Assembly: GCA_041749915.1 (NCBI GenBank)
Contig: JBGTAJ010000048.1
Span: forward strand, 17,844 to 81,843
Direction of reading: 5' to 3'
Origin: Flavobacteriales bacterium
GTDB lineage: Bacteria; Bacteroidota; Bacteroidia; Flavobacteriales_F; PHOS-HE28
Length of the DNA stretch: 64,000 nucleotides
The first letter of the stretch is position 1, and each line of letters begins with the position of its first letter. The notes below the pieces were generated by a model. The model saw only the letters and a program-made list of their open reading frames with translations. It did not search any database and was not told the origin of the DNA. The translations under genes were made by a program, and so were the position numbers. Positions 11,611 to 44,569 of this stretch are shown one piece after another.

Positions 11611-14600
11611 ATGTTACGAACCGCTACCCTGTCCGCCGCGCTATTGTTGTCGGTGACCCTTGCCCAAGCACAGTGCGTGACCACTTTCCCCTCGAACGAG
11701 GCCTTCACCGGCTTCACTGTGGGGACACCGGGGACACTGATCAACAATTGGTCCAACCTCACCATCGATGACATCGATTGGAACGTGGACAACAACGGTA
11801 CCCCTACGGCAGAAACGGGACCCATTGTGGACCATACGTTGAGCAATACCACGGGCAATGCCAAGTACATGTACGTGGAGAGTTCCGGTGCCAGCAACAC
11901 GCCGGCCAAGGTGGCCATCCTGCAGTCGCCGTGTTACAACATCTCAGGGCTGTCCAGCCCCTACCTCGTGTTCTGGTACCACATGCGCGGCAGCCAGACG
12001 GGGTCATTGCAGGTGGATGTGAACGCGGGCGGCGTGGTGACCCAGAGCCTTTGGACGGCTTCAGGGAACCAAGGGCTTTACTGGAAACAAGGCTGGTTGA
12101 ACCTGGCGCCATGGGCGGGGCAGGCTGATCTTCGGATCCGCTTCAGGGCCATCACCGGTTCGGGTGAACTGAGTGATATCGCCATTGATGACGTGTTCGT
12201 CGGGAACCTTACCCCGAACTTGGGATGCAGTGAGCCGACGGCCAACAACTTCAGTGCCGCCGTGAACCTGAACAACGGCACCTGCAATTACAGCTGTCCG
12301 GCCGGCCAGAAGCGGGTGCGCATCGATATCATGAACGACAGCTATCAGGGCGAGACCTCTTGGACCCTGACGAACGGCAGTACCAACGCGACGATCGTCA
12401 GTGGGAACAGCACCACGAACCGCACAGGCACTTCGGTCTGTGTGCCTGAGAACACCTGCCTGGTCTTCCGCATCAACGATACTGCCGGCGATGGCATTTA
12501 CCATAATACCTACGGTTTCGGGGCCTACTACGTCTGGCTCGATGGTGTCCTGATCAAGCAGGGCGGACAATTCGGCTCCTTCGAGGAGACCACCTTCAAC
12601 TGCCCCCCGGGATTCAGCTGCAGTTCCGCACTGCCACTAACACTTGCCCCGATCTCGGGAACGTACCCACAGACCCTGGCCACGGTGACCACCACAGCAG
12701 TGGAGCAGTGGTATGATTGGACTCCACCAGAGACCGGTGCGTACACCATCACCACCTGCGGAACGAACAGCTGCGATACCCGCCTGTGGTTGTATGATAT
12801 GAGCTGCGCGTCGATCGTGCTGAGCGATGGCGTGGAAGGTGCCACTTTCGCGGATGACGATGAAGGGGGCTGCGGTCTCCAGGCACAAGTGAACGCCAAT
12901 ATGCCCGGAGGGGTGCTCCACCACATGAGGGTCGGTGACAATGCCGGCGCATGCGGTGGATCCGTGACCTTCTCCATCGTCTACAATGGCCCCGTGGTGG
13001 GTTGCATGAACTCCCAATCGTGCAACTACGACCCGCTCGCCACCGTGGCCTGTGTGGATTGCTGCATGGCCTTCGGCGATCCGGAATGCCCTGAAGGTCC
13101 CGATCTGATCATGAGCTCCTCAGCCCTGCAGAGCAGCCTTTCCCTGTCCACTGTGAACATCACCGATGCCTGCGCACCGCAGGAAGGCTGCACCGGCGGA
13201 ATGGGTCAACGCTATGTGCTGCGCTTCACCACCCGCATCGAGAACATCGGCACCACCGACTACTACATCGGCAACCCCAGCACACAACCTTGGATGTTCA
13301 ACTCGAACAACTGCCATGGCCACTCCCACTTTTCAGGCTATGCGGATTACATCCTCTTCGACCAGGCGGGCAATGCGATCCCGGTGGGCTTCAAGAACGG
13401 CTTCTGTGTGATCGACGTGGGTTGCTATCCCGGTAACACCGGCCAGTTCGGTTGCAGCAACATGGGCATTTCCAAAGGCTGCTATGACATCTATGGTTCA
13501 GGCACCACTTGCAACTGGATCGACGTGACCAACGTGCCCGCCGGGCAATACACGCTGGTGCTGCGCACCAACTGGCAACGCGCTCCAGATGCCTTGGGCC
13601 GTCACGAGATGGACTACACCAACAACTTCGCCCAGGTCTGCATCAACCTCACCCGAAATGCCCAGAACGTGCCCTCGTTCTCTGTCGTCACAAACTGTGC
13701 ACCCTACACGGACTGCCTGGGCCAGCCCTATGGCGATGCCCGCTACGACTGCATGGGCACCTGCGCAGGAACCGTGAAGGACGGGGACCTGAACAACGAC
13801 CTGTTGCAAACTGCACCGGATGCCATGGAGTACGTGGCGGCCATCCTGGGCGATGACATCTCCCCCAACGCCTGCAACGACCTCAACGGTGACAATGCCA
13901 TCACGGTGACGGACGCGGCGTTGATGGTGAATTGCTACACGCAGCGCGACATCCACAACGCAGAGACCATCGTGGATTATCACCCTTGGTGCGAGTTCCC
14001 TCGCGGATGGCTCAGTGCCGAAGACCAGGTGGACCTCAAGCTCGCCAACCTGGACCCCGTGGCCAAGACGGTGGATGTGCTGATCCGTAACCCGAGCTGC
14101 AGGGTTCTCGGTTACGAATTCATGATGGGTGGGCTGCAAGTGCAGACCGTCACCAATCTGGCCCCCAACCTGGTGGGCGACATCGTGATCAGTTCCGGAC
14201 TGGGTGGTTCGCGGATCATCGGTCTTTCCTACACGGACAGCAGCTTGGTGAAGAACACCGACTTCACACCCCTGTGCCGCATCAATTATCTGGCCTTGAC
14301 CGCAGGCAACGTTTGCATCAGTGACATTGTGGACATCGTGAACGATCAGGCCAACAATGTCATGACCAGTGTCGTTGACGGTTGCCTTACGGTCCCGAAC
14401 GTTGTGGCGGTCAACCCCAAGGTCTTCCTCGAAGGACCTTTTGATGCCGCTCAGACCCTGATGCGTGATGACCTCCGGACCCAGTCGTTGATCCCGAACG
14501 TGGAGCCTTACACGGCCCTTGGCTATACCGGAGGACCAGGTGGGGAGACCATTGCCGCCGGCGTGTTGGACGTGACAGGCCCGAATGCCATCGTGGATTG

Positions 14601-15135
14601 GATCTGGGTGGAAGCCCGGTCCACGACCTCGCCGCATGCTGTCCTCGGTGCCCGCGCTTCGCTTCTGCAACGCGATGGTGATATCGTTGCCACGGACGGG
14701 ACTTCGGCCGTGTTGCTGCCGGTGGTACCCGGCAACTACCAGCTGGCCGTGCGCCACCGCAATCATCTTGGCATCATGACGCTTGCTCCCGTGGCGTTGT
14801 CCAGCAGCGTGGTCGAAGTGGACCTGCGAACTGCTTCCGTGACCATGTGGGGTACGGAGGCCCGCAAGCAGGACGGTGCATCCATGCTGATGTGGGCAGG
14901 AAATGCCACTCCCGATGAAAAACTGAGCTATGCCGGCCAGTCCAACGATCGCGATCCGATCCTGAGCGTGGTGGGGGGCTCGCTCCCAACGGGTACCGTG
15001 GTGGGCTACTACCTGGAGGATACCAACCTCAGCGGCGTGGTGAAGTACACCGGTGCCTCGAACGACCGTGACATCATCCTCTCCAACATCGGTGGGACGG
15101 TGCCGACTGCAACACGCCAGGAACAGTTGCCCTGA
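11611..15135 (+). CDS. Secreted multidomain protein: MAM, beta-sandwich modules, lysyl oxidase domain, dockerin-like, cohesin-like, ~240-aa C-terminal module
   Basis: Signal peptide from ATG 11611; MAM (TGP..DHT, YMYVE, FWYHM.G, DIAIDD); CHGHSH, GFKNGFC, GCYDIY, CNWIDVTNVPAGQY match the lysyl oxidase core. Confidence 0.85.
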   Translation: MLRTATLSAALLLSVTLAQAQCVTTFPSNEAFTGFTVGTPGTLINNWSNLTIDDIDWNVDNNGTPTAETGPIVDHTLSNTTGNAKYMYVESSGASNTPAKVAILQSPCYNISGLSSPYLVFWYHMRGSQTGSLQVDVNAGGVVTQSLWTASGNQGLYWKQGWLNLAPWAGQADLRIRFRAITGSGELSDIAIDDVFVGNLTPNLGCSEPTANNFSAAVNLNNGTCNYSCPAGQKRVRIDIMNDSYQGETSWTLTNGSTNATIVSGNSTTNRTGTSVCVPENTCLVFRINDTAGDGIYHNTYGFGAYYVWLDGVLIKQGGQFGSFEETTFNCPPGFSCSSALPLTLAPISGTYPQTLATVTTTAVEQWYDWTPPETGAYTITTCGTNSCDTRLWLYDMSCASIVLSDGVEGATFADDDEGGCGLQAQVNANMPGGVLHHMRVGDNAGACGGSVTFSIVYNGPVVGCMNSQSCNYDPLATVACVDCCMAFGDPECPEGPDLIMSSSALQSSLSLSTVNITDACAPQEGCTGGMGQRYVLRFTTRIENIGTTDYYIGNPSTQPWMFNSNNCHGHSHFSGYADYILFDQAGNAIPVGFKNGFCVIDVGCYPGNTGQFGCSNMGISKGCYDIYGSGTTCNWIDVTNVPAGQYTLVLRTNWQRAPDALGRHEMDYTNNFAQVCINLTRNAQNVPSFSVVTNCAPYTDCLGQPYGDARYDCMGTCAGTVKDGDLNNDLLQTAPDAMEYVAAILGDDISPNACNDLNGDNAITVTDAALMVNCYTQRDIHNAETIVDYHPWCEFPRGWLSAEDQVDLKLANLDPVAKTVDVLIRNPSCRVLGYEFMMGGLQVQTVTNLAPNLVGDIVISSGLGGSRIIGLSYTDSSLVKNTDFTPLCRINYLALTAGNVCISDIVDIVNDQANNVMTSVVDGCLTVPNVVAVNPKVFLEGPFDAAQTLMRDDLRTQSLIPNVEPYTALGYTGGPGGETIAAGVLDVTGPNAIVDWIWVEARSTTSPHAVLGARASLLQRDGDIVATDGTSAVLLPVVPGNYQLAVRHRNHLGIMTLAPVALSSSVVEVDLRTASVTMWGTEARKQDGASMLMWAGNATPDEKLSYAGQSNDRDPILSVVGGSLPTGTVVGYYLEDTNLSGVVKYTGASNDRDIILSNIGGTVPTATRQEQLP

Positions 15136-15162
15136 TCGGGTCCGAACACCGATGAAGCATTG

Positions 15163-15193
15163 GAACGCGCCTTTCGGGGCGCGTTCTGCTTTT
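15163..15193 (+). terminator. Intrinsic terminator
   Basis: GAACGCGCC-TTTCGG-GGCGCGTTC hairpin followed by TGCTTTT after stop 15135. Confidence 0.75.
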
Positions 15194-15267
15194 CCATCCT
15201 GGGACACTTTGGGCATTGCGCCGCATCTACCGATCCCGCTACATTGCCGACCCTTAAGAATTCAACC

Positions 15268-17946
15268 ATGTTGAGCGTCCGTATAACCTTTGTCAGCACC
15301 CTTCTTCTCGCGTCTTTTTCAGGGCTCCATGCCCAAGTGGCGCAGGGAGGGGTTCCCTTGTCCATCAGCCGAAGCACGAGCCTACCGGTACCCGCAGGAA
15401 TTCGCTTGCCGGATGTGGACCTGGGCCTGCTGGCTGCCCAGGATGCGATCAACGACCAGGACAAGTCGATCCCATATCGCTTCGGATACAACCACGCCAC
15501 AGATCTTGGCATCGAGAACTCGGGCACCTGGACCGAATTGGAGGATGGCTCGCGGCTGTGGCGGATGGGCATCGAATGTCCCGGTGCCTTGAGCATCAAT
15601 TTCGAGTTCACCGAATTCGACATCCCGGACGTGGCCAGGGTCTTCGTCACCAATGAGGCGGGCGAGTATATCGGTTCGTTCACCAATGCCAATGATCATG
15701 GCGACCATGTGCTGGGGGTGCAGCCTTTGCGGGGTTCGCGGATCACGGTGGAATACCAGGTGCCCACCGGTGCATCGCTGGGTGCACTGCGGATCGGTCA
15801 GGTCACGCACGGTTACCGCGACGTGTTCAACTACGGCCGTGGGCTCGGCGATTCCGGTTCGTGCAACAACAACGTCATCTGTCCCGAGGGCGATCCCTGG
15901 CGAGACCAGATCCGTTCGGTGGCCATGATCGTGGTCAACGGTAGCGGGATCTGCACCGGTACGCTGATCAATAACTGTGCGGCGAACGGTACCCCCTACT
16001 TTCTAACAGCCAACCACTGTCTTCCCGGCAACCTGAACGTAAGCACCTGGGTGTTCCGCTTCAACTGGGACAGCCCGGTGTGCGGCTCGAACCAGAACGG
16101 CCCCACCACACAGACGGTGAGCGGCGCATCGCTACTGGCCAACAGCGCTGGAACGGATGTTGCCCTGCTTCAACTGAACAGCACGCCACCGGGGAGCTAC
16201 AACGTGTACTACAGCGGGTGGGACAAGAGCGGTGTGTTCCCCACGAACCAGACGGCCATCCACCACCCCGCCGGTGACATTAAAAAGATCAGCTTCGACA
16301 ACCAGGCGGCTGGCCAGGCCAGCTATGGCGGTGCGCAGTGCTGGCGGATCTTCAATTGGGAGGATGGGACCACCGAACCGGGCTCCTCGGGAAGCGGGCT
16401 ATGGGACCAGAACAAGCGCTTGATCGGTCAGCTCTATGGAGGGCAGGCGACCTGCTCAAACAACGTGAACGACTACTACGGCCGCTTGGACCTGAGCTTT
16501 CCGCTGCTCCAACAATGGCTGGGAAGCTGCGGGAACACGGTGAACGGCTACGACCCGAACGCCCCCACCCTGACCTTGGATGCCCAGGTCACCGGATTCA
16601 CGGGTGTTGCCGCGAATACCTGCACTGCAACGGTAAGCCCCAGCGCCACGGTGCGGAACGGAGGCACCACCACCCTGACCAGCTTCCAACTGAGCTGGAC
16701 GGCATCAGGCGGGGCATCCGGAAACATCCCATGGACCGGTTCGCTCGCGAGCGGTGAGTCGGTCTCTCTGGCCTTGGGCAGCGTGGGTCTGGAACCTGGC
16801 GCGAACACGATCATCGCCACGGTCTCTTCTCCCAACGGAGGTGTGGACCAGAACGCCACGAACAACCAATCCCAAGTGGCGGTGCAGTATGGCAACAACC
16901 AGCTGACCTTGAACCTGGTGCTCGATCGTTACGGAGCGGAGACCACCTGGCAGATCCGCAACGGCGCCACGATCTATGCCAGCGGTGGTCCGTACACCAA
17001 CCAAGCGGCCAACGGCCAGTTCCCGCTTGCTCCCATCACCGTCTGTGTTCCCGATGGATGCCATGAGCTGGTGGTGTTCGACAGCTACGGAGACGGACTG
17101 TGCTGCGCCTATGGCAATGGCAGTTTCTCCCTGCTCGATGCACAGGGAGCTGTACTCGCTTCGGGGGGCACCTTCACCAGCAGTGTCACCTCGTCCTTCT
17201 GTGTCAGCGGTGAGATCGCCGTAAGGCCTCGCGTAATGTTGGAAGGCGCCTACGGCAATGGCCCATTGATGAGCGATGCATTGCGTTCAAACGGACTGTT
17301 GCCCCTCACCGAGCCTTACACTGCGCTAGGGTACACCCACGTGAGCGGTGGAGGCGAGACCACCACGGCACCGGTGCTCTCCGTGACGGGTGTGAATGCC
17401 GTAGTGGATTGGGTGATGGTGGAACTTCGGTCCACCACGGCCCCTTATGCGGTGCTTGCCACCCGGTCCGCACTGGTACAGGCCGATGGCGATGTGGTGG
17501 ATACCGATGGCACGTCAGCGGTGGCTTTCACCCTGGCCCCGGGCAACTACAGGCTGGCTATCCGGCACCGCAACCACCTCGGTGCCATGACGGCCTCCAA
17601 CATCGCGCTGAGCGCGACCGCTGCCACGGTCGATCTCACCTCAGCGGGGGTGGCAACCTATGGCACCGGTGCCCGCCGGGACGTGGCCGGTGTGCAGGTG
17701 CTTTGGACCGGGAATGCCATCAACGACGGACAGTTGTTGTACACCGGACAGGGCAACGACCGCGACCCCGTGCTGGTGCGCGTGGGCGGATCAGCCCCCA
17801 CGGCCACTGTCAGCGGCTACTGGCGTGAGGACATGAACATGGACGGCGTGGTGAAGTACACAGGCCAGAACAACGACCGCGACCCGATCCTGAGCAACGT
17901 GGGCGGCAGCGTGCCCACCGCCGCGAGGGCCGAGCAATTGCCATGA
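15268..17946 (+). CDS. Secreted trypsin-like protease (lysyl endopeptidase/Achromobacter protease I type) with CARDB-like domain and the ~240-aa C-terminal module
   Basis: YFLTANHC, TDVALLQL, GTTEPGSSGS triad; DYYGR; propeptide; C-terminus homologous to that of the upstream gene. Confidence 0.9.
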   Translation: MLSVRITFVSTLLLASFSGLHAQVAQGGVPLSISRSTSLPVPAGIRLPDVDLGLLAAQDAINDQDKSIPYRFGYNHATDLGIENSGTWTELEDGSRLWRMGIECPGALSINFEFTEFDIPDVARVFVTNEAGEYIGSFTNANDHGDHVLGVQPLRGSRITVEYQVPTGASLGALRIGQVTHGYRDVFNYGRGLGDSGSCNNNVICPEGDPWRDQIRSVAMIVVNGSGICTGTLINNCAANGTPYFLTANHCLPGNLNVSTWVFRFNWDSPVCGSNQNGPTTQTVSGASLLANSAGTDVALLQLNSTPPGSYNVYYSGWDKSGVFPTNQTAIHHPAGDIKKISFDNQAAGQASYGGAQCWRIFNWEDGTTEPGSSGSGLWDQNKRLIGQLYGGQATCSNNVNDYYGRLDLSFPLLQQWLGSCGNTVNGYDPNAPTLTLDAQVTGFTGVAANTCTATVSPSATVRNGGTTTLTSFQLSWTASGGASGNIPWTGSLASGESVSLALGSVGLEPGANTIIATVSSPNGGVDQNATNNQSQVAVQYGNNQLTLNLVLDRYGAETTWQIRNGATIYASGGPYTNQAANGQFPLAPITVCVPDGCHELVVFDSYGDGLCCAYGNGSFSLLDAQGAVLASGGTFTSSVTSSFCVSGEIAVRPRVMLEGAYGNGPLMSDALRSNGLLPLTEPYTALGYTHVSGGGETTTAPVLSVTGVNAVVDWVMVELRSTTAPYAVLATRSALVQADGDVVDTDGTSAVAFTLAPGNYRLAIRHRNHLGAMTASNIALSATAATVDLTSAGVATYGTGARRDVAGVQVLWTGNAINDGQLLYTGQGNDRDPVLVRVGGSAPTATVSGYWREDMNMDGVVKYTGQNNDRDPILSNVGGSVPTAARAEQLP

Positions 17947-40650: not shown

Positions 40651-42225
40651 ATGAAACACCTTTACACTACGCTGGCCATGGCCGTCTTCGGCCTCAGTCT
40701 GGGTGCAAGTGCACAGCTCTCCTTCGGAGGCCAACCCCGCGGCTTGTCCCCTAACGTCGATCTTCCTCAGGCACCTGTGGCCGTCATGCCGACCGTGGAT
40801 GCCGAGGCCCTGAAGGCCGAGGACGCCATCCGCGAGCAGCAGGGCATCAAGGGGCCCTACCGCTTCGGCTTCAATCATGCCACCGACCTCAGCCTGGACA
40901 ACAGTGGGGTGTGGCATACCAATGCTTCCGGCGAGCGGGTGTGGCGCGTTGCCATCCAGTGCCCACAGGCCTACAGCATCAACTTCGAGTTCCATGAATA
41001 TGTGGTCCCCGATGGTGCCGAGGTGTTCGTATACAACGACGCTGGTGAGCACATCGGCTCCTTCAACGCCGAAAGCAACCCCGGCCAAACGGTGCTGGGT
41101 GTGACCCAGTTGGCCGGTGAACGGATCACGGTGGAATATGTGGAACCTCTGGCTGTGCGCGGTCAGGGGCGTCTCCGCATCGGACAGGTGACCCATGCCT
41201 ACCGCGATATCATGGGCCTGGAAAAGGGATTGGGCGATTCCGGGTCCTGCAACAACAACGTCGTCTGCGCCGTGGGTGACAACTGGCGCGCGCAGATCCG
41301 TTCGGTGGCCATGATCACCGTGGGTGGAAGCGGTCTCTGCACCGGTACGTTGATCAACAACTGCGAAGAGGATGGAACACCTTACTTCCTCACCGCAAAC
41401 CACTGCCTGGGGGGGAACAATACCTGGGTGTTCCGCTTCAACTACAACAGTCCCTCGTGCATCCTGAACAACAACGGTCCCACCAACCAGACCGTGTCGG
41501 GTTCCACCTTGAAAGTGAACAGTGCCACCACCGATGTGGCCCTTTTGCAATTGAACACCACTCCGCCGACCAACTACAACGTGCACTACAGTGGTTGGGA
41601 CCGCAGCACCGCCATCCCCCAAAGCGCGGTGGGCATCCACCACCCGAGCGGCGACGTGAAGAAGATCTCCTTCGACAACAACCCGTTGACCACATCAGCC
41701 TACCTGGGCAATGCCAATTCCGGAACGAACTTCTGGCGTGTGGGGAACTGGGAGGACGGCACCACGGAAGGCGGAAGCTCCGGTAGCGCCCTGTTCAACC
41801 CGGACGGCCTGGTCATCGGACAACTCTATGGAGGCTTTGCGAGCTGTTCCAGCATCACGGCCGACTACTACGGTCGCTTCAACATCAGCTATCCCCTGTT
41901 GCAGAACTGGCTGGGGAACTGTGGCAACCAGCTGTTCGGCTTCCCATCCACGACCAGTGTGGACGAGAAGATCTCCGCAAACCGGGTCGGGCTCTTCCCC
42001 AACCCCACCAATGGCATGGTGACGGTGACCCTGCCGTTGACGATCCAAAAGGACGGACAGGTGAATCTGTATGACGCCTTGGGCCAGCGCATCCTCGAGC
42101 GGAACTTTCGCAGCGGTGCGGAGCGCCTGGAACTTGACCTGAGCGGCCGCAGCGAAGGAATCTACCTCGTGGAGGTGGTATCCGGCGGAACCCGGACCGT
42201 GGAGCGCCTGGTGCTGAACTACTGA
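40651..42225 (+). CDS. Lysyl-endopeptidase-type S1 protease with T9SS type A CTD
   Basis: TANHC/TDVALL/GTTEGGSSGS; FPNPTNG...GIYLVEV...ERLVL C-terminus. Confidence 0.92.
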   Translation: MKHLYTTLAMAVFGLSLGASAQLSFGGQPRGLSPNVDLPQAPVAVMPTVDAEALKAEDAIREQQGIKGPYRFGFNHATDLSLDNSGVWHTNASGERVWRVAIQCPQAYSINFEFHEYVVPDGAEVFVYNDAGEHIGSFNAESNPGQTVLGVTQLAGERITVEYVEPLAVRGQGRLRIGQVTHAYRDIMGLEKGLGDSGSCNNNVVCAVGDNWRAQIRSVAMITVGGSGLCTGTLINNCEEDGTPYFLTANHCLGGNNTWVFRFNYNSPSCILNNNGPTNQTVSGSTLKVNSATTDVALLQLNTTPPTNYNVHYSGWDRSTAIPQSAVGIHHPSGDVKKISFDNNPLTTSAYLGNANSGTNFWRVGNWEDGTTEGGSSGSALFNPDGLVIGQLYGGFASCSSITADYYGRFNISYPLLQNWLGNCGNQLFGFPSTTSVDEKISANRVGLFPNPTNGMVTVTLPLTIQKDGQVNLYDALGQRILERNFRSGAERLELDLSGRSEGIYLVEVVSGGTRTVERLVLNY

Positions 42226-42340: not shown

Positions 42341-44569
42341 ATGCTGCGAACCTTACTCGCCGTCAGCTTTCTGTTCACCCTTTCGGCCGCCTCCGCACAG
42401 ATCGCCTTCGGGGGCACTGCCCTGGGACTCCGGTCACGTGGGTTGATCCTGCCGGCCGCACCTGTGGTCGAGCTCCCCATGGTGGACGCGGAGGTCTTGA
42501 TGGCCGAGGATGAGGCCAGGGCTGCCGAAGGGATCAAGGGGCCTTTCCGTTTCGGTGCCAACCATTCCACGGACATCACCCTGGAGAACGCCGGTGTGTG
42601 GCACACCCTGCGCGGTGGTGATCGCATCTGGCGTGTGGCCCTGCACTGCCCCGGGGCATTCACCATCAACTTCAAATTCACCGAATACGTGATGCCCGAC
42701 GGTGCGAAGCTCTTCGTGTACAACGAGGCCGGGCAGCAGCTCGGAGCGTTCACAGCGGCCAGCAATCCCGGGCACCAGCGTTTGGGCGTCACCCAGTTGC
42801 CGGGTGAGCGCATCACCATCGAATACCACGAACCCTTCGCGGTGAGCGGTGAAGGCCGCCTGCGCATCGGACAGGTCACGCACGGCTATCGTGACCTGTT
42901 CAAGATCGCCCGCGACCTGGGCGATAGCGGGCCATGCAACATCAATGTGATCTGCCCGGAGGGGGACGACTGGCGTGATGAGATCCGCACCGTGGCCATC
43001 ATCACGGCGGGCGGCAACGGGTTCTGCACGGGAACCCTTTTGAACAATTGTGCATTGGACAGCATTCCCTATTTCCTGACCGCGAACCACTGCCTGGACC
43101 CCGATGTGGAGGATTGGGTGTTCCGCTTCAATTGGGACAGCCCCGTGTGCGACCCTACGGAGAACGGCCCCATCGACCAGACCGTTTCGGGCTGCGAACT
43201 GCTGGTGAGCAATGTGGGCACCGACATGGCCTTTCTGCGCCTGAACACCACGCCACCCGCGGAGTACAATGTCAACTGGGCGGGTTGGGACAAGCGCGAC
43301 ATCGCGGCCACCTCGGCGGTGGGCATCCACCACCCCAGCGGCGACATCAAGAAGATCAGCCGCACCGATGGTGCCCTGTCGCAGGCGGATATCGACCTGG
43401 GCACCGGGAATGCGGATTGCTGGCGCGTGGCCGTGTGGGATGCCGGTACCACGGAACCCGGAAGCTCGGGCAGTGCACTGTGGGACCAGAACCACCGCGT
43501 GGTGGGCCAGCTCTACGGTGGAGCGGCCAACTGCACCAACAGCGTGGATGATTACTACGGACGCTTCTCCACCAGCTGGCCCTTCCTGGAGGAATGGCTG
43601 GGCACCTGCGGCGATACGCTGGACGGACTGAACATCCCCTCGGTGGTGCCCATGAACTGGGATGCGGCCGTGACCTCGATCTACAACGTGCCGGAACTGG
43701 TGTGCAACAGCGATGTCATTACACCCTTCATCACCATCAAGAACAACGGCCTGATGTCCCTGACCAGCGTGGCCCTTTCCTATGGCGTCCCCGGTCAACC
43801 ACAGGCCAACACCTTCTGGACCGGTAGCCTGCAGCCCGGCGAGACGGTGAACCATCAGTTGCCTGCCATCTTCGTGGGTGCCGGTGAACACGTGCTCACG
43901 GTGAGCAGCAGTGCCCCCAATGGCTTTGAGGACCAGTTCATGGAGAACGACAGCTGGACCTTTGAATTCGTGGCCAACAGCCCCGGCCAGGAGGTGCTCT
44001 TCGACTTGATACTGGACGACTACGGCACCGACATCACCTGGACCCTGGAGACCGATAGCGGCACGGTGATCTACGAGGGCGGACCATATGCGGATGGACA
44101 GGACTGCGATCTGGTCTCGGTGCCCTTCTGCCTCACCAATGGTTGCTACACCTTCACCATCAACGACGCGCTTGCCGACGGCATCTGTTGCGACGCGGGT
44201 GAGGGGTCCTACAGCATCGGCATCGAGGGATGGGTGACCTTCGCGGAGAGCGATGGCCAGTACGGTGAGGGTGAGGTCCAACGCTTCTGCCTTGCGGAGG
44301 TCGCCGTGGCGGAGGTGGACGGTCGGGGATCCCTGCGGCTCGCGCCCAATCCATCGAGCGGACGCGTAAGGCTGGACCTGATCGGGCAGGAAGGAGCGCT
44401 TCTGCTGGAAGTAATGGACGTCTCGGGCCGCTCGTTGCTGGCCCAAGACCTGGCAGCGGGCACACGGACCACCTGGCTCGATCTCGGCGCCTGGGCCGAC
44501 GGCGTCTACCTCGTCAGCGTGCGGAATGCCGATGGTCGTTCGTTGCAGCGCCTGGTCCTTCAGCACTGA
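42341..44569 (+). CDS. Lysyl-endopeptidase-type S1 protease with CARDB-like domain and T9SS type A CTD
   Basis: TANHC/TDMAFL/GTTEPGSSGS; APNPSSG...GVYLVSV...QRLVLQH. Confidence 0.92.
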   Translation: MLRTLLAVSFLFTLSAASAQIAFGGTALGLRSRGLILPAAPVVELPMVDAEVLMAEDEARAAEGIKGPFRFGANHSTDITLENAGVWHTLRGGDRIWRVALHCPGAFTINFKFTEYVMPDGAKLFVYNEAGQQLGAFTAASNPGHQRLGVTQLPGERITIEYHEPFAVSGEGRLRIGQVTHGYRDLFKIARDLGDSGPCNINVICPEGDDWRDEIRTVAIITAGGNGFCTGTLLNNCALDSIPYFLTANHCLDPDVEDWVFRFNWDSPVCDPTENGPIDQTVSGCELLVSNVGTDMAFLRLNTTPPAEYNVNWAGWDKRDIAATSAVGIHHPSGDIKKISRTDGALSQADIDLGTGNADCWRVAVWDAGTTEPGSSGSALWDQNHRVVGQLYGGAANCTNSVDDYYGRFSTSWPFLEEWLGTCGDTLDGLNIPSVVPMNWDAAVTSIYNVPELVCNSDVITPFITIKNNGLMSLTSVALSYGVPGQPQANTFWTGSLQPGETVNHQLPAIFVGAGEHVLTVSSSAPNGFEDQFMENDSWTFEFVANSPGQEVLFDLILDDYGTDITWTLETDSGTVIYEGGPYADGQDCDLVSVPFCLTNGCYTFTINDALADGICCDAGEGSYSIGIEGWVTFAESDGQYGEGEVQRFCLAEVAVAEVDGRGSLRLAPNPSSGRVRLDLIGQEGALLLEVMDVSGRSLLAQDLAAGTRTTWLDLGAWADGVYLVSVRNADGRSLQRLVLQH

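Follow-up and report, generated by a model that had tools for sequence, protein, structure and literature searches.

An X-module–dockerin-like C-terminal module on secreted proteins of a Flavobacteriales bacterium and a candidate cohesin-fold partner

Two tandem genes in a 64,000-nucleotide (nt) stretch of a Flavobacteriales bacterium genome (assembly GCA_041749915.1, contig JBGTAJ010000048.1, positions 17,844 to 81,843; this whole stretch is called the window) encode unrelated secreted enzymes that end in the same module of 243 amino acids (aa). The module stands where a paralogous protease of the window has a type A C-terminal domain (CTD), which is a type IX secretion system (T9SS) signal. 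What does a protein gain from such an ending? The original prediction, made from the DNA alone, had offered two readings: a new class of T9SS signal, or a dockerin attaching its cargo to a scaffold at the surface. The second reading is supported by an X-module–dockerin-like (XDoc-like) fold, by dockerin matches in distant members of the family, and by an adjacent cohesin-fold partner with a type A CTD, whereas the first survives as a rival. The module is probably an XDoc that sits, in each genome, on some 30 or more enzymes and adhesins destined for secretion and docks into small CTD-bearing proteins with a cohesin fold. The module and these candidate partners are referred to below as the plug and the socket.

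The shared module and its carriers

The two genes (open reading frames [ORFs] A and B), their parts, and the paralogous proteases of the window are as follows.

11611..15135, + strand: ORF A, with a signal peptide, Pfam MAM, Lysyl_oxidase, and an internal Dockerin_1, a cohesin-like domain, and the XDoc-like module
13783..13932, + strand: internal canonical dockerin of ORF A (Pfam Dockerin_1), 5′ of the module; 18.6 bits, 26.7 bits with its neighbors
13933..14403, + strand: 157-aa domain of ORF A between the internal dockerin and the module; possible cohesin, a lead only
14404..14898, + strand: module copy A, beta-sandwich (X-module-like) half; boundary approximate, transferred from the model of copy B
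14899..15135, + strand: module copy A, derived dockerin half and stop codon; two YxGxxNDRDxIL repeats and an EQLP end
15268..17946, + strand: ORF B, with a signal peptide, propeptide, trypsin-like S1 peptidase, weak CARDB, Cys-rich domain, and the XDoc-like module
17215..17709, + strand: module copy B, beta-sandwich half; model residues 1 to 165, with invariant W66 and HRNHL at 118 to 122
17710..17946, + strand: module copy B, derived dockerin half and stop codon; residues 166 to 243, with invariant NDRD at 181 to 184 and 220 to 223
40651..42225, + strand: another S1 protease paralog, of smaller size, also ending in a type A CTD (CTD models)
42341..44569, + strand: paralogous protease with the domains of ORF B and a type A T9SS CTD at its end (CTD residues about 668 to 741)

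The start of ORF A was placed at the ATG at 11611 from the signal-peptide-like MLRTATLSAALLLSVTLAQAQ, the longest ORF running from 11488. The longest frame of ORF B runs from 15160, and its Pfam matches are Trypsin_2 and a sub-threshold CARDB. Both modules are the in-frame 3′ ends of their genes and stop at EQLP followed by the stop codon. The two tails align end to end without large gaps, with 143 of 244 columns identical (59% over 243 aa; E = 7e-99), a likeness far above what chance would give, which bears out the claim that one module (14404-15135 and 17215-17946) sits on two unrelated enzymes. The further claim that the protease at 15268 carries the module where the paralog at 42341 has a type A CTD was also upheld. 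The two proteases are 46% identical (residues 7 to 652 of ORF B against 4 to 656), the alignment stops exactly at the module start, and the paralog then runs into a type A CTD (TIGR04183, 32.3 bits; PF18962, 26.2 bits).

The genome (4.14 Mb in 329 contigs, 61% GC, 96% complete) holds 34 matches to the module at E <= 0.001, 29 of them spanning its full length. In the C-terminal count called for in the original prediction, 31 of the 34 copies proved terminal: on stop-to-stop ORFs these end no more than 4 residues from the stop, whereas one hits a contig end and two continue into Fib_succ_major. The latter arrangement is seen at C162:6874-8706 (L034), which reads signal peptide, module, and Fib_succ_major (PF09603; E = 2.5e-35), and at C174:2254-3255 (L059), whose 5′ end is cut by a contig end and which reads module and then Fib_succ_major (E = 1.7e-41). 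The module is found in about 30 secreted proteins per genome. The carriers are of many types, including reprolysin-like and M36 peptidases, a subtilase with 14 MopE repeats, PQQ-type sugar dehydrogenases with PKD and PA14 domains, lysyl oxidase, LRR, beta-helix, and endonuclease/phosphatase proteins, and others. By a crude hydrophobicity rule, 21 of the 24 carriers with a complete 5′ end have a signal-peptide-like N terminus.

Known T9SS signals were not found on these proteins. The type A models (TIGR04183/PF18962) gave no match on ORF A or B, none on 29 further carriers at E <= 0.001, and none on the 29 isolated modules even at E <= 10, while they do score the paralogs at 42341 and 40651. 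The type B models (TIGR04131/PF13585) gave no match to the module, and none of their 38 matches in the genome falls in a listed module ORF. The type C model (NF033708, ChiA type) gave no match on ORFs A and B and four weak matches elsewhere in the genome. Por_Secre_tail (PF18962) and CHU_C (PF13585) were absent from all 31 carriers scanned.

These observations invite the explanation that the module is itself a fourth T9SS signal class, read by the translocon or by a shuttle (PorV or PorP-like), its dockerin ancestry being incidental. Such a role is compatible with docking, and we consider it rather unlikely. It is favored by the position of the module exactly where the paralog has its type A CTD, by the lack of other CTDs on its carriers, and by their signal-peptide-like N termini. 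It is also favored by the secretion inventory: no secretin was found in the 96%-complete genome, yet a T9SS is evident, with one PorV, 38 type B matches, of which 34 exceed the cut-off, and at least 150 type A CTD matches (best 150 of 229 candidates scored). Furthermore, a third CTD class (type C, ChiA), described in PMC10202324, shows that further classes exist. Against it, no dedicated shuttle gene recurs beside module genes in this genome, and no PorP-like or PorV-like neighbor of module genes recurs.

The wider family points both ways. A profile (A1) of 29 module copies, searched against 1.84 billion cluster representatives, matched 12,909 representatives (50% identity clusters) at E <= 0.001 and 3,964 at E <= 1e-30. 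The module lies at the very end of 146 of the best 150 representatives and of 115 of 115 close homologs, its final tetrapeptide has the pattern [EQAG]Q[LVIF]P across the phylum, and neither PF18962 nor PF13585 occurs in 120 homologs among the matches listed (precomputed Pfam domains). All three facts suit a sorting signal, and the conserved free C terminus suggests that the end of the protein matters beyond the canonical role of a dockerin. However, the module is not always terminal. Two of the four exceptions among the best 150 (P0004 and P0142) read signal peptide, module, and a Fib_succ_major-like domain. One representative (P0008) has three tandem modules, the last of them terminal, and another (P0009) has five, followed by a CTD-like tail. 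In a distant set of 72 module proteins from 55 other Bacteroidota genomes, 70 stop within about 70 residues of the profile end without a further domain, and two (L064 and L088) continue into a type A CTD. An internal module, or one followed by a normal CTD, was what the original prediction had named as evidence against it if common; such cases do occur, but rarely (2 of the 72 distant homologs, 2 of the 34 copies in this genome, and a few among the 150 best representatives). Before a type A CTD (L064, L088), before a CTD-like tail (P0009), or N-terminal to Fib_succ_major (C162, C174, P0004, P0142), a C-terminal signal could not serve its purpose, which argues that the module is more than a signal.

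Every one of the order's 132 genomes (two genera of one family) has the module; a first look gave as many as 90 candidates in a genome, of which the best 21 were scored. It also occurs in 55 of 400 other Bacteroidota genomes (an even phylum sample; best 6 per genome scored). Its homologs, where named at all, take their names from the N-terminal enzyme, in records of the type "MAG: Flavobacteriales bacterium," and no Pfam or NCBIfam model matches the module itself. The family is uncatalogued and very widespread.

Structural identity of the module

The AlphaFold (AF2) model of the module (predicted local distance difference test [pLDDT], 92.7; predicted template modeling score, 0.90) is a single compact unit, a beta-sandwich (residues 1 to 165) followed by two strand-helix repeats. 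In a structural search of 48,161 chains, the best match was Coh9-X-DocII of CipA from C. thermocellum (3kcp_A; Z 10.0, 146 residues aligned) and the second was the CipA XDoc in complex (5g5d_B; Z 9.5, 147 of 156 residues aligned), whereas the third row fell to Z 6.5. The top Foldseek rows are also XDoc, but weak (E = 4.5e-3). Residues 166 to 233 alone align to the NagH dockerin 2ozn_B (Z 5.1, root mean square deviation 2.0, 51 residues aligned), and the dockerin half also aligns to 2vn5_B (Z 4.8). In the predicted structure, this half has the duplicated loop-helix (F-hand) fold of about 60 to 70 aa that defines dockerins, and an immunoglobulin-like (Ig-like) X module lies directly N-terminal to it and is packed on it, as in type II XDoc. 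The comparison with dockerins and CTDs that the original prediction had proposed thus came out on the side of XDoc, CTD rows being found at Z 5.3 and lower. The sandwich half does weakly match solved CTDs (8qb1_A, Z 5.3; 8glk_D and 8gl8_D, Z 4.8), a point for a fourth T9SS signal class, but these matches do not rise above the background given by generic Ig-like sandwiches (Z <= 6.5 from rank 3 on).

Sequence comparison reaches the same family from its distant members. Pfam Dockerin_1 matches 19 of the 72 distant proteins at E <= 0.01, overlapping module-profile positions about 170 to 215, and exceeds its 22.9-bit cut-off in six of them (L069, L099, L109, L116, L120, and L125). In many distant members, the profile extends over the sandwich and repeat 1, and what follows reads as classical dockerin repeats. 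A good example of a docking context is provided by two relatives from other Bacteroidota classes with Pfam Cohesin upstream of the module in the same protein, L060 (G184:C12) and G320:C12:1-2510 (L137/L121; two cohesins), which have the architecture of primary scaffoldins. Because the module has an XDoc fold and its distant members match dockerins, the copies of the window appear to be a derived XDoc, and the claim that the last ~75 aa resemble a dockerin is confirmed by both lines of evidence. The Pfam dockerin model misses these copies because each calcium loop has an insertion (YTGxxNDRD). Judged from the model and from sequence relationships, the module is thus not a new fold and appears homologous to the plug that anchors clostridial scaffoldins.

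Cohesin-fold proteins encoded beside module genes

A dockerin calls for a cohesin, and a candidate family was found as a recurrent neighbor of module genes. The genome has four copies, each with a signal peptide, a 165-aa domain without a Pfam match, and a variable end.

C205:28014-28856: socket gene with a type A CTD end (Pfam Por_Secre_tail)
C7:13362-14357: socket gene with a type A CTD end (Pfam Por_Secre_tail)
C105:9231-10076: socket gene L072, with a canonical Dockerin_1 end (28.5 bits) instead of a CTD
C205:36336 onward, cut by a contig end: socket gene with an end of Cys-rich repeats

Por_Secre_tail is over its cut-off in copies L071 and C7. The L072 protein is adaptor-scaffoldin-like, and its gene is the divergent neighbor of the gene for a 2707-aa module carrier of the subtilase/MopE-repeat type. 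Each of the 132 genomes of the order has 1 to 10 copies of the family, and an ~80-aa CTD-like tail ends all 29 orthologs inspected.

The socket domain has the fold of a cohesin in its predicted structure (pLDDT, 89.9), including the nine-stranded jelly roll. In a wide structural search, cohesins filled the top 17 rows, with types I, II, and III represented (Z 9.8 to 7.8, 114 to 135 residues aligned), and the top Foldseek rows were cohesins as well (E = 4.1e-4, probability 1.00). These searches bear on another explanation, namely, that the module is a calcium-dependent binder of a nonprotein ligand, such as a surface or substrate glycan, and that the neighboring cohesin-fold proteins are unrelated T9SS cargo. 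Cohesin-like and X-like sandwiches resemble carbohydrate-binding modules (CBMs), with CBM2 and CBM3 rows at Z 6.5 to 5.7 for the socket model, and the carriers are hydrolases, oxidases, and adhesin-like proteins. However, the best fold matches of both partners, XDoc and cohesins, stand well above the CBM rows, and glycan binding gives no reason for the gene adjacency described below. We regard it as highly improbable.

Plug and socket genes lie next to each other in at least five lineages. In this genome, three of the four socket genes abut module genes. Of the 23 socket domains in five near-complete congeners, 10 begin no more than 300 nt past the end of a same-strand module, 13 are within 2 kb of a module, and 17 are within 10 kb, compared to 0.23 of 23 expected from random placement; because some of these loci are orthologous, they represent fewer than ten independent adjacency events. 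Outside the order, the socket profile matches 6 of 400 genomes. One match, in G306, is weak and interrupted by stop codons. Six further matches (5 genomes, 4 families) all adjoin a full-length module gene, five of them directly after it and the sixth 2.5 kb downstream, and all six proteins have Por_Secre_tail over the cut-off, one of them with Pfam Cohesin as well.

A similar arrangement recurs in more distant genomes. At 60 distant module loci, the next downstream gene encodes a T9SS-CTD protein in 25 cases, 20 of them over the curated cut-off. These proteins are 320 to 470 aa long, and their first part has no other Pfam domain. Four match the socket profile and two match a hidden Markov model (HMM) of 37 Bacteroidota cohesins; the remaining ones are candidate cohesins. 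Single-linkage clustering put the socket family together with 25 of the 26 CTD proteins encoded downstream, and it was rejected as cohesin evidence because profile iteration from the socket family regains just 4 of the 26; the links probably run via a spacer domain. Six of the proteins (L195 to L199 and L202) have a conserved stretch of ~100 aa between the cohesin-fold domain and the CTD, LPVELTSF...W.T..E.NN.GF...Y.RLKQ.D.DG, without a Pfam match, and this stretch probably explains the clustering.

One further comparison carries little weight. In the phylum sample, Pfam Cohesin occurs in 29 of the 55 module-bearing genomes compared to 97 of the 345 without the module (odds ratio 2.85), a difference that was discounted because related genomes are not independent. 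A modeled pair of the module (alignment A1) with two calcium ions and the cohesin (alignment A2) reached a median score of 0.31 against a mark of 0.32, with one control at 0.40, and was counted neither way for binding.

The neighborhoods also held an artifact and a single curiosity. When the 831 ORFs lying up to 8 kb from module genes were compared with one another by BLAST, the largest neighbor cluster consisted of antisense ORFs of the module itself and was discarded; this false family of 18 ORFs arose because a GC content of 61% gives long antisense ORFs over module genes. In another genome (L101; G298:C1), a PorV gene (PF19572, 202.9 bits) lies ~536 nt downstream of one XDoc-tailed gene, a single case and maybe a coincidence.

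Proposed docking, export, and comparison with known systems

The docking reading can be put together as follows. An XDoc is appended to cargo proteins whose paralogs carry a T9SS CTD. Small socket proteins, with their signal peptide, hidden cohesin, and type A CTD, would be exported by the T9SS and are expected to be fixed on the cell surface, by analogy with the type A cargo of Porphyromonas, which the T9SS attaches there (reviewed in PMC10202324). The XDoc-tailed enzymes and adhesins would most likely then plug into the socket cohesins in a calcium-dependent manner, so that the cargo would be displayed on the cell and not released.

Several results weigh against this reading. First, the dockerin half is atypical: Pfam Dockerin_1 (PF00404) matches none of the 29 copies in this genome even at E <= 10, the insertion in the calcium loops is absent from canonical dockerins, and the extreme C terminus, [EQAG]Q[LVIF]P and conserved across the phylum, looks less like part of a dockerin than like a signal for sorting. 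Second, the cohesin status of the socket comes from its predicted fold, because sequence comparisons find no cohesin. Pfam Cohesin (PF00963) has no match in the genome at E <= 0.1 and none on L071 to L073 at E <= 1, and the HMM of 37 Bacteroidota cohesins does not match the socket (profile-profile probability, 1.4%). That HMM has one weak match in the genome, on C249 (E = 0.014). Third, the low yield of the profile iteration leaves most downstream CTD proteins of other lineages unconnected to the socket family, and 25 of the 55 module-bearing sample genomes have neither a Pfam cohesin nor a socket family member that could be detected. Finally, docking alone leaves export unexplained, as the genome lacks a detectable secretin and the cargo lacks a known T9SS signal. 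Searches against solved structures were likewise silent on both sides, the module profile and the socket profile each giving no match to Protein Data Bank (PDB) chains at E <= 1.

By what route, then, might some 30 proteins per cell that lack a CTD get past the outer membrane when the genome has no secretin? Either the T9SS would also read the module, or the cargo would ride bound to a cohesin-CTD carrier. In the latter case, XDoc cargo would fold in the periplasm, plug into the carrier there, cross as a complex by way of the carrier's type A CTD, and stay docked on the surface, a route that we put forward tentatively and consider rather unlikely. If it exists, a few cohesin-CTD proteins would serve as shared export adaptors and anchors for ~30 cargo proteins per cell. 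No description of such piggyback or hitchhiker secretion by the T9SS was found in the literature.

Cohesin-dockerin assembly is textbook knowledge for Gram-positive cellulosomes, and noncellulosomal cohesins and dockerins across life have reportedly been surveyed by Peer et al. in 2009. The closest system to that proposed here is the clostridial type II XDoc, as in CipA of C. thermocellum with its SdbA/OlpB/ScaC-type cohesins (PDB 2b59, 3kcp, and 5g5d). The two have in common a beta-sandwich followed directly by a two-repeat dockerin at the extreme C terminus, the best structural match over the whole module, scaffoldin-like cohesins upstream in some relatives, and a candidate partner with a cohesin fold on a predicted cell-surface anchoring protein. 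They differ in several respects. First, the module is found on ~30 different enzymes and adhesins per genome and not on one scaffoldin. Second, it has insertions in its calcium loops, a conserved QLP/QVP end, and no sequence match to solved chains. Third, the host is diderm, so the cargo must also cross the outer membrane, and the anchor is a T9SS type A CTD compared to SLH domains or sortase in clostridia. Finally, the cargo is not cellulolytic and consists of proteases, lysyl oxidase, PQQ-type dehydrogenases, and LRR and beta-helix proteins.

The module also shares features with T9SS CTDs of types A, B, and C. Like them, it is C-terminal on Sec-exported multidomain extracellular proteins of Bacteroidota and begins with a beta-sandwich, and it is interchangeable with a type A CTD between paralogs. 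Unlike them, it is 243 aa long, about three times longer, its second half is helical and dockerin-like, and it is sometimes internal or placed before a true CTD.

A proposal of a similar kind exists for "Ca. Stygibacter" (Cloacimonadota), in which dockerin-tailed enzymes and a cohesin scaffoldin with a T9SS-type CTD would form a cellulosome-like complex (PMC8542988). Both systems have dockerin-tailed secreted enzymes and cohesins on a CTD protein for attachment to the cell's own surface, and both are proposed from genomes alone. However, the Stygibacter system uses canonical modules found by InterPro and one giant scaffoldin with tandem cohesins, whereas here both modules escape Pfam, the sockets are small and single-cohesin, and the plug has an X-like sandwich and is hugely expanded. 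Dockerins are also reported in rumen Bacteroidetes (PMC6487960), and a cohesin-dockerin pair has been modeled in a Chlorobiota epibiont (bioRxiv 10.64898/2026.03.19.712371). A literature search covering main texts turned up nothing on the module family, on the hidden cohesins, or on an XDoc-cohesin-T9SS pairing in Bacteroidota.

Both parts of the system thus escape standard domain models, in a setting far from Gram-positive cellulosomes. If the binding is true, annotation of a major environmental phylum would have overlooked a whole layer of surface organization, thousands of "hypothetical" proteins would gain a localization, and T9SS cargo prediction from CTD models would undercount the surface proteome.

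Finally, ORF A has a second dockerin. Its internal Dockerin_1 (G000:C48:31626-31775 in contig coordinates) was also found in a second scan, at E = 0.0017. The 157-aa domain that follows occurs once in the genome and aligned significantly neither with the L060 cohesin nor with the socket alignment A2; its nearest ESM-Atlas clusters (scores 0.93 to 0.94) have PF00963 in 14 to 56% of their members. The tail of ORF A may thus read dockerin, cohesin, and XDoc, in which case this enzyme would be an adaptor as well as cargo.

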